Source: a virus. Taken from it: 64,000 nt of DNA. Numbering within the stretch: the first letter of the stretch is position 1; the number at the start of each line of letters is the position of its first letter. Location of the stretch: IMG/VR virus record IMGVR_UViG_3300036985_007703, positions 104,533 through 168,532 of that record; one strand, written 5' to 3'. Below the pieces are notes generated by a model. It was not told the origin of the DNA. It saw only the letters and a list, made by a program, of their open reading frames with translations, and made no database searches. Position numbers and translations under genes: made by a program. Positions 2,714 through 60,441 of the stretch are shown here, one piece after another.

Positions 2714-2753
2714 CGTCATCGCTCCTTGCGCATGCGCATACGCAGCGCCGTTG

Positions 2754-3185
2754 TCACTTGTCCTCGACCAGCAGCCCCGGCTTGGGGCCGTCGACCACCG
2801 TGCGGTCCGCCGAGGGGCTGTCCTCACGGTCGGCCGCCTCCTGGTCCGCCACGTCCATGGCGCTCGTGTCCGCCCACTGGGGCTGCGCCGCATCGGGGTC
2901 CCCCGCCGGCGCCGCCACCGGCGCCCGGCTGAGGGCCGCCGTGACCGCCATGGCCACGGCCTCGCCCTGCTTGGCCGCCCGGCGCACCGCGATGGCCGCG
3001 CCCTGTTGCCCGTGGTCCGCGATGCCCTGCGCGAGGAGCCACGCCCCGACGAGCCCAAGGACCGTCAGCATGGTCTCCTCGTCGATGCGCTTTCCCGTCA
3101 GCGCGTTGGTCAGGTACGCCGCCACGCTGATGAGCATCACGATCAACTTCCGGCTCTCGATCTTCAGCTTCGCCAGCCACGTCAT
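2754..3185 (-). CDS. Holin-like membrane protein
   Basis: N-terminal KIESRKL followed by two hydrophobic segments and an acidic tail. Confidence 0.55.
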   Translation of the reverse strand: MTWLAKLKIESRKLIVMLISVAAYLTNALTGKRIDEETMLTVLGLVGAWLLAQGIADHGQQGAAIAVRRAAKQGEAVAMAVTAALSRAPVAAPAGDPDAAQPQWADTSAMDVADQEAADREDSPSADRTVVDGPKPGLLVEDK

Positions 3186-3193
3186 GGATCACC

Positions 3194-3850
3194 TCACGCA
3201 GTCTTGACCAACGCCGCGATGCCCAACCCGATGGGCGCCGCTGCCGCCATCATATCCGACTTGCTGGCCCCCAGCACGATCTCCTCGATCGCGTGGGGCT
3301 GCAGCTCCAGCTCCATCATGCTCACCTCGGCGCTGTTCGCGTCGAAGTCCGTCCCCGCCTTGTACCGCGTGGGGAGGCAGTCCCAGAGGACCCAGACGCG
3401 CCCCGGCACGAACGAGGCGCCCTCCCAGGTCTCCAGGGGGGCCGGGAGGTCGAGGTTGTAGCCCCCCGCCTCCTGGAAGGCGTTCACGCCCGTGTAGTGG
3501 ATGAGGAGCAGGGTGCGCTGCACCATGTCGGAGCCGCGCATCGCCCGCTTCACCCAGTCGTACAGCGTGTCGTCGTTCATGCGGGCCCCGCGCGTCAGCG
3601 AGATCGGCCCGCAGCCGCCCCCCTCGTAGGCCACCGTGGTCCACATGGAGTTGAGCTGCTTGATCTCCCGCGTCTGCAGGGTGATCTCCGGGGCCGTGAT
3701 GCTCGCGAACCCGTACATGGGCGAGCCCAACACGAAGAAGGGGAAGGTCGTCGAGGGGATCAGGTCCAGCAGCCAGAAGCGGTGCGCCTGCAGCAGGTCG
3801 AACATGCGACTCTTGCTGACCGCCTTGAGCGTGTTCCGCACATCGACCAC
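3194..3850 (-). CDS. T4 gp19-like tail tube paralog (minor tube/initiator)
   Basis: GFASITAPEIT, ISLTRG, LYDW, P.RYKAGTDFDANSAEVSMMELEL. Confidence 0.75.
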   Translation of the reverse strand: MVDVRNTLKAVSKSRMFDLLQAHRFWLLDLIPSTTFPFFVLGSPMYGFASITAPEITLQTREIKQLNSMWTTVAYEGGGCGPISLTRGARMNDDTLYDWVKRAMRGSDMVQRTLLLIHYTGVNAFQEAGGYNLDLPAPLETWEGASFVPGRVWVLWDCLPTRYKAGTDFDANSAEVSMMELELQPHAIEEIVLGASKSDMMAAAAPIGLGIAALVKTA

Positions 3851-3898
3851 TGCCTACCTCATGGCCCCGCGCCCCCCGCCGCGGGGAGGCCGCAGGGA

Positions 3899-4417
3899 TC
3901 AGACCGTCTCACCGTTGATCTTCAGCTCGACCGACTCGACCGCGAGGCCGAACTCGGCGATCGACACGTCGCCGCTCGTCGCGTCCATGTCCGCCGCGAG
4001 CTTCACGCGGATCGGCACGCACTCCCGGCAGATGTACTCGCGCGTCGCGCCGCTGGCCGCCACGAGGTTGGCGCCGAAGGCGTCCTCGCGGCTGAAGTGC
4101 AGGATCTGGAGGTCGGCGCGGTACTCGCCGCCCTTCGCCGCGCTCTGGCCCCAGCGCCAGAAGTCGCTATCCAGGGCCGTGATGCCGCGGGTCAGGGTGA
4201 CCTCGCTGAACGTCGGGATGCCGCTGAGCTTCTTCGTGAAGATCGTCGTGCCCTCACGGTACTCCACGGCGTCCATCGTCAGCTCGGGGATGCTCAGCGT
4301 GTTGAAGCCCGCCTGGACCTTGAACACGTCCCCCTGCGACCCGATGGGCGAGCCGTCGATGACCCGCGCGTGGTAGCGGAAATTCTGAAAGAAGTCGGTC
4401 GTGATTGCCCGTGCCAT
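3899..4417 (-). CDS. Tail tube protein (T4 gp19 family)
   Basis: NFRY, AGF, VEYREG, KLSG..FSEVTLTRG, DATSGDVSIAE; downstream of sheath. Confidence 0.88.
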   Translation of the reverse strand: MARAITTDFFQNFRYHARVIDGSPIGSQGDVFKVQAGFNTLSIPELTMDAVEYREGTTIFTKKLSGIPTFSEVTLTRGITALDSDFWRWGQSAAKGGEYRADLQILHFSREDAFGANLVAASGATREYICRECVPIRVKLAADMDATSGDVSIAEFGLAVESVELKINGETV

Positions 4418-4448
4418 ATCTGCTCCTTTTGTCCTTCTAGCCCGGCCC

Positions 4449-58584: not shown

Positions 58585-59339
58585 GCCCCCTCCTTCCCGA
58601 AGCTCGCGATGTCGAAGGAAAACGGCAGGCACGGCTGCACCTGCCCCTCCTCGCACCACGCCCGGATCGGGCACGTCCCGCACCGCGGCATCCGCGCCGT
58701 GCAGACGTAGTGCCCGAGGTCCATGAGGTGCGAGGCCAGCTCGTAGCGCACGGGGCGCCCGAACTGCGGCGGCAGGCCGCCCGCCTCGCCCTCGTTCATG
58801 CAGGCCGCAAACACCGCCGCCAGCCAGCGGTCCCCGTCGCCGCCCGCCGCCGCGCGGTCCCCCACACGCCGCAGGTTGGCGTCCACCGGGGGCACCCCGT
58901 CCTCGCCGAGGAGCAGGGCCACCATCGCGCTCGTGTAGGGCCCCACGCCGGGGTACTGCTGGAGCGCCCAGGCCAGCGTGCCGATCCCCATCCCCTTGTG
59001 ATGCTGGGGGTCGCCCGCCAGGTGGTGCGGCCGGCGCTCCGCGAGGAACATCGCGATCCCCGACATGGCCGCGACCTTGAGGCGCGGGAGGCCCAACGGC
59101 TGGACCCGCGCGTGGCGCGCCCCCTCCGGCAGGCGCAGCCACTCGGCCCCCGTCCGCACGCCATCGAAGATCAACTCGTAGCCCGCGCTCACCGCCTCGG
59201 CCCCCGTCTGGGCCGTCAGGCCCTCGACCATCGCCAGGCGGTCCACGGGCTCCTCGGGGGCCCGCCACGCGAGGGCCCGCTGCCCCCAGCTCGTCCGCCC
59301 CCACGCCCGCAGGGCCTCTACTATCTCGCGCATCGTCAT
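58581..59339 (-). CDS. HhH-GPD DNA glycosylase with 4Fe-4S cluster (MutY/EndoIII-like)
   Basis: PGVGPYT, VDANLRRV, LMDLG..VC....PRC..CP....C. Confidence 0.85.
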   Translation of the reverse strand: MTMREIVEALRAWGRTSWGQRALAWRAPEEPVDRLAMVEGLTAQTGAEAVSAGYELIFDGVRTGAEWLRLPEGARHARVQPLGLPRLKVAAMSGIAMFLAERRPHHLAGDPQHHKGMGIGTLAWALQQYPGVGPYTSAMVALLLGEDGVPPVDANLRRVGDRAAAGGDGDRWLAAVFAACMNEGEAGGLPPQFGRPVRYELASHLMDLGHYVCTARMPRCGTCPIRAWCEEGQVQPCLPFSFDIASFGKEGA

Positions 59340-59343
59340 CCTC

Positions 59344-59631
59344 CTACTTCATCCACAGCAGCCCGCGCCACGGGGCCCAGGGTCCGACCCCCGCCATCCC
59401 CAAGGCGCACATCGCCACCTGGCACAGCATCAGCGCCAGCATCCCGATCTCCCACGCCGTCAACACGATCAGCAGGACCCGCCGATAGCGCGGCTCCTCC
59501 GCCAGTATCTCAGGGCGCTCGATGGCCACGCGCGCCCGCAGCTCCCACAGATCGCCCGTCGCGCGCAGCTCGTAGATGAGCTTGCGCGCCCAATAGGCAG
59601 AACACGCCGCGATCACCACGAGCACCACCAC
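59344..59631 (-). CDS. Membrane protein
   Basis: Two hydrophobic segments. Confidence 0.45.
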   Translation of the reverse strand: MVVLVVIAACSAYWARKLIYELRATGDLWELRARVAIERPEILAEEPRYRRVLLIVLTAWEIGMLALMLCQVAMCALGMAGVGPWAPWRGLLWMK

Positions 59632-59632
59632 G

Positions 59633-60025
59633 CTAGCCTTGCCCGCCCGGCCCCAACAGGGGCCTCGGCGTCACGTTCACGGGGCCCGTCGCCGCCGCGA
59701 GGGCCCGGCGCAGGCCCCGTTCCAGCTCGGTCACCATCTCACGCACGTATTGGGCGTCGTAGCCCGCCGTGCGCGAAGTCAGACCGATGCCGGGAATCTT
59801 GCGGCCCACCTCGACGTGCTCTCCGCCCGGCGCCCACGCCCCGAGGATGAAGATCGCCTGCTCATCGGTCACGTCCTCGAAGCGCAACTCCGCGTGGGGG
59901 CGCTCCGCACGCCCCGCCCGCACCAGGTCGTGGAGCTGGCTGATGGCCTGGAGCAGGAGGCCGCCCACCAGCTCGCGCGCACGCCCCGCGTCGTGATCGT
60001 TCGGGTGCAGCAGGCGGTTCCTCAT
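59633..60025 (-). CDS. Hypothetical protein
   Basis: Coupled ORF. Confidence 0.5.
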   Translation of the reverse strand: MRNRLLHPNDHDAGRARELVGGLLLQAISQLHDLVRAGRAERPHAELRFEDVTDEQAIFILGAWAPGGEHVEVGRKIPGIGLTSRTAGYDAQYVREMVTELERGLRRALAAATGPVNVTPRPLLGPGGQG

Positions 60026-60396
60026 GCGCCCCCCGCGTCGGCCTCGAAGAGGCGCCCCAGGTTGGCCACGATCTGGGCCACGCTCGGCACGGGGTGCAGC
60101 GCCGCGTACAGCTCCTCGGGGCGCTCCGCGTGCGCCACAAGGCCGTCCAGGGCGAGGGCCCCGATCCGCACCAGGGCCTCCACCAGCACGCCCCGCGCCG
60201 CCTCATGCGCCAGGGTGCCCTCAGCATCGCGCATCACGCTCATGCGCCAGAGCTGCGTGCAGGCGTCATCCAGGGCCGCGCGCGCCGCCTCCACCCACAG
60301 GAGGTCCTCCGCCGCGGCGTCCATGGGCTGATGCACCGCAGCCGCCGTGTACTGCGCGAAGATCGCGACTAGGGCCTCCTTCGGATTCACCGCCAT
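60022..60396 (-). CDS. Hypothetical helical protein
   Basis: GAGGTG RBS region, palindrome upstream. Confidence 0.5.
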   Translation of the reverse strand: MAVNPKEALVAIFAQYTAAAVHQPMDAAAEDLLWVEAARAALDDACTQLWRMSVMRDAEGTLAHEAARGVLVEALVRIGALALDGLVAHAERPEELYAALHPVPSVAQIVANLGRLFEADAGGA

Positions 60397-60441
60397 CCTG
60401 CACCTCTCGCTGCGTACGCGCGTACGCCATATCGCCCGTCG

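Follow-up and report, generated by a model that had tools for sequence, protein, structure and literature searches.

What is an 18-bp palindrome doing when it recurs throughout a viral genome, mostly in the short gaps between adjacent genes, and what, if anything, reads it? The question arises from the terminal 64 kb of a virus record that is 168,532 bp long at 69.6% G+C (IMG/VR record IMGVR_UViG_3300036985_007703), a stretch referred to below as the window, in whose coordinates features are given unless another genome or contig is named; the whole record, labelled G000, is 83% complete. Judged by its gene content, the phage is a distant T4-like myovirus, uncultivated and high in GC, with genes for a Gp23 capsid protein, a T4-type portal, a prohead protease, a sheath protein and a large terminase, and no close relative of it was found among GenBank phages. 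Third-position G+C of ~0.9 identifies the minus strand as the coding strand for essentially all genes, with ~134 kb of coding sequence there vs a few tiny open reading frames (ORFs) on the plus strand. An earlier annotation of the window made from its letters alone (the sequence-only reading) had singled out the palindromes as binding sites for a dimeric phage protein. The analysis reported here points the same way, at somewhat better than even likelihood: the palindromes would be cis-acting recognition sites in double-stranded DNA, to which a sequence-specific protein attaches in the form of a symmetric dimer.

The family was defined by the degenerate 18-base pattern TGCGYAYGCGCRTRCGCA, in which pyrimidines and purines (Y/R) alternate perfectly over 18 bp, an alternation preserved by every substitution seen. 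Seven exact matches lie in the window (2727, 10551, 20562, 33549, 35384, 39586 and 56207), where dinucleotide shuffles yield none, and five more with one mismatch (8761, 24717, 27560, 41505 and 60411) bring the number to 12, vs 0.12 in shuffles; the sequence-only reading had counted 11. It had likewise listed four copies that differ at a terminal base, of which there are five, whereas its three perfect palindromes were recovered at their coordinates and its restriction of internal variation to positions 5, 7, 12 and 14, with transitions only, held throughout. In the whole record, 17 copies are exact, and allowing up to two mismatches raises the number to 28; Markov models of orders 1-5, with the copies left in the training data, predict between 0.0003 and 0.002 exact copies. 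About 19-21 of the 28 are intergenic in a genome that is 10.5% non-coding (P about 1e-13), and about 20 occupy 32-75-nt gaps between co-directional genes, so that copy number and gap placement both lie far beyond what composition would produce. These 28 are distributed evenly along the entire genome, through both early and late regions, at a mean spacing of 6 kb. This spacing is evener than random in G000 (coefficient of variation 0.60, P=0.002) and in the genomes G007 (0.57, P=0.002) and G008 (0.62, P=0.005), but not significantly so in G005 (0.81, P=0.20).

The placement of the copies is stereotyped. In the mRNA sense, the order in the gaps (about 20 copies) is stop codon, palindrome, Shine-Dalgarno sequence (SD) and start codon, and a typical copy begins 2-9 nt past the stop, with AGGAG 0-3 nt downstream and the start codon 11-21 nt beyond the palindrome. 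Six copies that had been described as lying just upstream of start codons (2727, 8761, 20562, 35384, 56207 and 60411) are indeed found 11-21 nt upstream of them, directly before the SD, and the copy at 10551 overlaps a start codon. The copy at 33549 had been placed about 45 bp upstream of terS; the distance stands, being 45 nt from a 256-amino-acid (aa) gene that precedes the large terminase gene (TerL), while the name terS applies to that gene by position only, as it has no family match. The four copies reported inside ORFs were confirmed (24717, RTRVR; 27560, RMRMR; 39586, RTRVR; 41505, RMRMR), and the frame of these deep copies is always the one that encodes R-M/T-R-M/V-R. The proteome has 30 RxRxR peptides, of which three are RMRMR, against 0.02 expected, and two are RTRVR, against 0.15; by this excess, the in-ORF copies are driven by nucleotide sequence rather than by protein composition.

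Comparison with close relatives separates the positions that are held from those that drift. IMG/VR holds five contigs of the same phage group at 81-95% nucleotide identity, one of which, the 161-kb relative G001, carries 25-28 copies at orthologous places; among 2.9 million viral contigs scanned, the motif is multi-copy in this phage group only. Between G000 and G001, the twelve core positions that never vary among copies differ at 4 of 300 sites (1.3%), as against 10.8% in the 15-nt flanks (P=1e-8), and the four Y/R positions and the terminal positions change at the flank rate (10% and 16%, respectively). By this measure, the twelve core positions are under strong purifying selection. All substitutions at orthologous sites are transitions.

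More distant relatives were used to ask whether the sites persist. The capsid protein of G000 has more than 1,400 metagenomic relatives, from which three groups were compared by capsid identity: lineage A, the carriers of TGCGYAYGCGCRTRCGCA (G000, G001 and others, plus L213 at 76% capsid identity); lineage B, contigs L214, L216 and L218 (about 63%); and lineage C, L215/G005 and others (about 57%; 52% G+C). L213 keeps the lineage A palindrome at three orthologous places, namely upstream of the terS-position gene, inside the gene after the portal gene and at the gp13-like junction. Lineage B has a different perfect palindrome, CGGCACACGTGTGCCG, at the gp13-like junction (the counterpart of 20562) and again in the gap that precedes the terS-position gene; with two changes, this element is also found on homologous codons of the gene after the portal. 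Its core, ACACGTGT, is constant, and the outer bases of one half-site change independently of those of the other (left CGGC, CGTT, GAGC or CAGC; right GCCG or AACG). The lineage C element is CGAAC-TTGA-GTTCG, also given as GCGAACTTGAGTTCGC; it stands at the gp13-like junction as GCGAAC-TTGA-GTTCGC and, inverted, on the same codons of the gene after the portal. That codon stretch reads SRMRMR in lineage A, VGTRVT in B and SRTQVR in C, and, because there is no indel relative to these homologues, the G000 copy at 27560 evolved in place.

Lineage C, which includes two complete genomes with terminal repeats, also permits a genome-wide view. Each genome has 19-26 exact copies, forward and reverse in about equal numbers, and 0 copies of a control pattern; of 17 one-mismatch variants, 13 fall in the central four bases. 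In G005 (complete, 157 kb), the genes lie on one strand, 21 of the 26 sites are intergenic, and many sites abut the SD 12-17 nt before the start codon in either orientation. At three G005 sites, a TTGACA -35 box follows the end of the site by 8-11 nt, against 0.16 such cases expected (P=0.0005). G000 and lineage C share 61 reciprocal best hits at a mean identity of 39%, and orthologous neighbours allow 13 G000 sites to be placed, at 5 or 6 of which lineage C has a site at the same junction or codon; at the counterpart of 8761, for instance, an element of the lineage C type stands immediately ahead of the orthologous gene in G005. From these alignments, the positions of the sites are old and their sequence is specific to the lineage.

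The conserved site map, the concerted replacement of sequence and the strict conservation of half-sites together argue for one trans-acting, sequence-reading factor per lineage, which would most likely be phage-encoded. A dimer on duplex DNA fits better than a hairpin in RNA or single-stranded DNA (ssDNA), because lineage C is insensitive to orientation and lineage B half-sites vary independently, and also because the dyad runs through the centre in lineages A and B, the in-ORF copies are selected, the element is compact and its folding is unremarkable. The occurrence of lineage C sites in both orientations, even beside an SD, argues in particular against recognition of a specific RNA or ssDNA loop. 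The sites mostly occupy the only free space of a compact, one-strand genome, which lies between a stop codon and the next SD, and, where there is no gap to use, they are placed in ORFs at the cost of amino-acid choice. As to what the bound protein does, we infer that control of transcription along the one-directional genome would be the preferred role, as a roadblock or insulator at gene junctions and, at some of the sites, as a promoter-proximal regulator; the sites themselves would be equally compatible with dispersed binding by an origin- or initiator-type protein. A broader proposal, that a large uncultivated T4-like clade without the T4 late box controls its one-directional genome via ~25 evenly spaced dyad sites and one fast-evolving dimeric protein, as a programmable punctuation (roadblock, insulator or loading sites) with a conserved map in which site sequence and protein are rewritten together in each lineage, is tentative and rather doubtful.

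Several observations weigh against duplex sites for a dimer. The arms covary in lineage A, at positions 5-14 (odds ratio 32, P=0.003) and 7-12 (P=0.00016), with no positive covariation at positions 1-18 or in unpaired combinations, and orthologous lineage A sites show at least seven compensatory double changes, one of them inside an ORF, where a synonymous C-to-T change is paired with Met-to-Ile. Covariation is not predicted by independent half-site recognition by a dimer; it needs either selection for pairing or template-switch correction. Quasi-palindromes are corrected by template switching during replication in T4 and E. coli; arm covariation could arise without selection if near-perfect palindromes are corrected in this way here, and in that case it would not be a mark of hairpins alone. 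An mRNA element, too, would be well served by the stereotyped place immediately ahead of the SD, and some junction hairpins may act as RNA: one hairpin outside the family, GCGCC-TGCG-GGCGC (L212:2142-2167, genome 102142-102167), keeps its stem in relatives by means of a compensatory G-C to C-G change and a G-U pair.

The search for the binding protein gives the remaining points on that side. While the proposal of sites for a dimeric protein gained from the lineage-specific dyads at the same positions, the two orientations in lineage C and the independent half-sites in lineage B, its binder was not found: site-adjacent and lineage-shared genes gave no DNA-binding family except one Bro-N protein. 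PHROG and Pfam scans of 30 such proteins returned the Bro-N protein, a weak RuvC-like match, two DNA methyltransferases, an IstB-like ATPase and structural proteins, but no regulator, and PDB sequence searches with three candidates gave no match. Family searches of the record, at its 83% completeness, gave no match to GyrA/ParC, RegA, C5 methylase, ParB_N, Y1 transposase, or tyrosine and serine recombinases. One conserved 124-aa protein without a Pfam match (37052-37426, minus strand), whose lineage C orthologue has a dyad site over its promoter, is predicted to fold with confidence (predicted local distance difference test score 93.6) and resembles ASCH/YqfB (PUA-like) structures in Foldseek (E=1.8e-5); this sole folded candidate, judged from its model, is not a classical regulator and is unlikely to be the reader. 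The motif was not met in the published literature searched. The methyltransferases N6_N4_Mtase and MT-A70, as well as the Bro-N protein, are conserved between lineages A and C (L208:16200-17258, L207:2421-3098 and L208:18416-19219); the Bro-N gene has the genome coordinates 38416-39219.

Two conventional transcription signals were considered and set aside. A separate sigma70-like promoter family exists, gTTGACAAACC followed after about 17 nt by TAnnnT (TTGACAAACC-N-TAnnnT), with members at 54144, 37560 and 34326 on the minus strand and at about 15 places in genome 2-40 kb; given these promoters, the abutment of the site on the SD and the presence of sites in both early and late regions, the palindromes were rejected as promoters. 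At two places a palindrome is preceded by such a promoter and then falls in the 5' untranslated region (UTR), and at one place a palindrome ends 5 nt ahead of the -35 box. Likewise, an intrinsic terminator was rejected, as no U-tract follows the palindrome and canonical hairpin-plus-T-run terminators occur elsewhere. The T4 late box, TATAAATA, has no sense-strand match in G000 and one copy in G005 of lineage C.

The rival explanation that survives best, though it is judged unlikely, is an intercistronic mRNA hairpin with a 6-7-bp stem and a GCGC loop just 5' of the SD, which would bar exonucleases, signal processing or stability, or offer an RNA-binding protein a translational operator. The covariation described above favours it, being found at both paired positions and not at unpaired ones, as do the compensatory double changes, including the one that pairs a synonymous with a non-synonymous change, the exclusive use of transitions, the stop-element-SD layout with its 0-3 nt to the SD, the presence of at least one copy in a 5' UTR downstream of a sigma70-like promoter, and the compensatory evolution, G-U pair included, of the junction hairpin outside the family. 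Nevertheless, the palindrome is perfect through its centre in two independent multi-copy families, where a 4-nt loop would be self-complementary by chance in 1/16 of cases per family; the two orientations of lineage C would give UUGA vs UCAA loops, even beside SDs; the arms vary without pairing in lineage B; and the in-ORF copies are selected and positionally conserved. Folding adds nothing to its case: gap RNAs fold no better than shuffles, with or without a palindrome (mean z -0.21 vs -0.16 in other gaps), four single sites range from z -0.45 to +0.62, the antisense strand folds as well as the sense strand, and flank complementarity within a site is no higher than between sites (P=0.74), so that the stem is not extended. 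On the sense strand, G-U intermediates are not significantly preferred over C-A (about 11 vs 6 events), and an Rfam scan of the window gave 0 matches. Covariation is the only remaining support for base pairing.

Pairing need not take place in RNA, and an element that acts through DNA structure, adopting a non-B form (ssDNA hairpin, cruciform or Z-DNA) of the alternating palindrome, might serve as a recombination or replication signal, or as a sink for the supercoiling that one-directional transcription generates. The perfect Y/R alternation, kept by every substitution, speaks for such an element, together with the covarying arms, the even spacing, the absence of strand bias in the intermediate states and a gene for a RuvC-like junction nuclease adjoining one site. 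The prospect is nevertheless a slim one: at the same positions, lineages B and C have elements without Y/R alternation (CGGC..., CGAAC...), twelve positions are conserved in sequence and not merely in class, and the concerted replacement of sequence within a lineage points to a factor that reads sequence. In addition, cruciforms do not extrude readily from arms as short as 7 bp, and the Z-DNA or cruciform propensity named by the sequence-only reading is a property of the sequence only.

About as improbable is a match in each lineage to the operator of a conserved dimeric repressor of the host, such as LexA, with the motif varying by host group. The lineage C core is exactly CGAAC-N4-GTTCG, which we take to be the Gram-positive-type SOS box (LexA) pattern, the G+C contents of the lineages (52% vs 70%) suggest different hosts, and the searches found no phage-encoded binder. 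Against this, the N4 is almost always TTGA, a constancy that LexA would not demand, and only the lineage C element, not the lineage A palindrome, fits the pattern. In bacterial genomes, the exact lineage A 18-mer is scattered and consists largely of microsatellite-like single occurrences, without informative context and not upstream of repair genes. The weakest explanation, a selfish or mutational by-product in which palindromes spread or are regenerated by template switching and are tolerated in gaps without a function for the phage, could appeal to the lack of an associated function or protein in the searches and to the fact that palindromes can be homogenised by template switching, but is very improbable in view of the purifying selection on the core, the even spacing, the conservation of positions across lineages whose shared proteins are about 39% identical, the origin of in-ORF copies by substitution rather than insertion and the failure to find a Y1/RAYT transposase in the record.

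The individual copies of the window can be taken in order along it, all neighbouring genes being on the minus strand. The first (TGCGTATGCGCATGCGCA in the mRNA sense; 2727-2744) lies in the gap between 2754-3185 and 2447-2713, 9 nt past the stop, directly before AGGAG and 13 nt before the ATG, and has orthologous copies in four relatives that are changed at Y/R positions. The copy at 8761-8778, with one terminal mismatch, follows the stop of 8781-8963 by 2 nt and precedes 8024-8740. That at 10551-10568 closes a 56-nt gap after 10620-10994 and overlaps the called start of 9931-10563, in whose product RLAALLE is seen as the N-terminus. A perfect 20-bp palindrome, CTGCGCATGCGCATGCGCAG, marks the junction (20562-20579) between the gp13-like gene 20586-21296 and 20097-20546. 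Inside the prohead protease/scaffold gene 24163-25767, the copy at 24717-24734 (EVRTRVRG) shows synonymous drift in relatives, is absent from the relative at 76% capsid identity and is possibly weak or decaying; the copy at 27560-27577 (SRMRMRN) lies in 27015-27902, the gene next after the portal. The perfect palindrome at 33549-33566 occupies the gap between 33579-33995 and the 256-aa gene 32733-33503. Another perfect 20-bp palindrome, a CAC/GTG variant (35384-35401), stands after 35421-35969 and upstream of 34337-35338, whose product has 333 aa, and its orthologous site in G001 is the TAC/GTA variant, a compensatory double change; the product of 35421-35969, conserved in lineage C, has a weak match to RuvC-like Holliday junction resolvases (E=3.5e-4). 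Two further in-ORF copies are a perfect palindrome at 39586-39603 (LRTRVRK, gene 39470-39763) and the copy at 41505-41522 (LRMRMRE, gene 41248-42756). The copy at 56207-56224 covers the last codons of 56191-56445, with AGGAGAG following it directly and the start of 55523-56194 coming 12 nt after it, and the last, at 60411-60428 with one terminal mismatch, lies between 60442-61050 and 60022-60396, 13 nt past the stop and 14 nt before the ATG.

Other symmetric elements and features were noted in the same genomes. Two single-copy 18-nt perfect palindromes, CGCGATCACGTGATCGCG and GCGCGGGGCGCCCCGCGC, share the stop-palindrome-SD layout (L209:5092-5109 and L208:7043-7060; genome 45092 and 27043). 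At the protease-to-capsid junction of lineage B, another 16-nt perfect palindrome (L214:5789-5804, L216:11771-11786) differs between contigs by a compensatory pair, GCGCGCCGCGGCGCGC vs GCACGCCGCGGCGTGC. In G005, two perfect-palindrome variants, CGAACTTAAGTTCG, lie 40 bp apart (118984-119037; L347:18984-19037) within a ~950-bp non-coding region that is possibly a control region or origin, and the paired variants are also found in G006. An intein with an HNH endonuclease domain interrupts the large terminase gene (29782-32736, minus strand), and inteins also occur in portal and terminase genes of relatives. Lastly, tRNA-like sequences follow a terminator and a palindrome copy at L207:6760-6960 (genome about 6,760-6,960), and a 4.7-kb stretch of genome 61-66 kb that is devoid of protein genes is probably a tRNA cluster.

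A few actinobacteriophage groups are known to have dispersed operator-like palindromes, whose function is mostly unsolved; such palindromes are now found in T4-like myoviruses as well, accompanied by an evolutionary signature in which positions are conserved even within an ORF, sequence is replaced in concert, and copy number and spacing stay similar. This signature narrows the search for the reader to about 60 shared genes, and complete genomes of the sister lineage exist for comparison. A reader acting as roadblock or insulator would, if real, explain the timing of a one-strand, 160-kb genome without T4 late promoters, and orthogonal pairs of protein and site would be of practical use.

Among published systems, the closest counterpart is a 17-bp palindrome found in Cluster O mycobacteriophages, TGTTCGG-N3-CCGAACA, which is present in more than 30 copies, has no known function and is predicted by its authors to be bound by a dimeric DNA-binding protein (PMC4351075). 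There, as here, short dyads are spread genome-wide, mostly in short gaps with some in genes and mostly not tied to promoters, and lysogeny functions are not seen; nevertheless, the Cluster O sequence is unrelated, its carriers are siphoviruses of Mycobacterium, the dyad has a 3-bp spacer, and lineage-specific sequence at conserved positions, arm covariation and even spacing are not reported in that study (PMC4351075). The stoperators of Cluster A phages, of which 20-35 per genome stand in short operon gaps, are the targets of a single phage protein, which blocks RNA polymerase during elongation, and their consensus differs between sub-lineages and co-evolves with the repressor (PMC9283540, PMC6550527). 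Copy number, short-gap placement (28 copies, about 20 in gaps) and a sub-lineage-specific consensus are thus shared, whereas stoperators are asymmetric 13-14-bp sites that are read by a monomer, oriented to transcription and in the service of lysogenic immunity (PMC9283540, PMC6550527). Neither that asymmetry nor that fixed orientation is seen here, lineage A having a perfect dyad and lineage C both orientations on a one-strand genome. The stoperator-like roadblock proposed by the sequence-only reading is accordingly still possible as a mode of action, but with symmetric sites and no sign of lysogeny in the record, in which, at 83% completeness, no tyrosine or serine integrase was found and no repressor was identified.

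Its further suggestion of parS-like sites is weakened, since ParB_N (PF02195) was not found in G000, 83% complete as it is, while control genomes were positive. The parS site is a 16-bp palindrome in a few copies clustered near the origin, unlike 28 copies spread evenly over a whole genome. Promoters of the T7 group, about 17 sites, some in ORFs, have a lineage-specific consensus that co-evolves with the protein that reads it, and so offer the same combination of conserved site map and lineage-specific consensus; unlike those asymmetric, directional sites, the present ones are dyads in both orientations, no phage RNA polymerase is evident, and they lie too near the start codon to leave room for an SD-containing leader. 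REP and BIME elements are likewise short, GC-rich, multi-copy palindromes after stop codons, with roles at the DNA level (gyrase, IHF) and the mRNA level, but REPs are longer, imperfect 20-40-nt hairpins with a GTAG tag and a RAYT transposase partner, whereas the present element is an 18-20-bp perfect palindrome without flank pairing, confined to one clade, and the Y1 transposase PF01797 was not found in the record. The CUUCGG intercistronic hairpins of T4 and the RNase III sites of T7 are also repeated elements between the cistrons of lytic phages; they function at the RNA level and in one direction, by means of special loops or long stems, unlike an element that folds no better than shuffled sequence and whose orientation is irrelevant in a sister lineage. 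The present system belongs with these dispersed-site systems in kind, and what appears to be new is its combination of dyad sites in a T4-like phage with even spacing and a conserved map whose sequence is lineage-specific.

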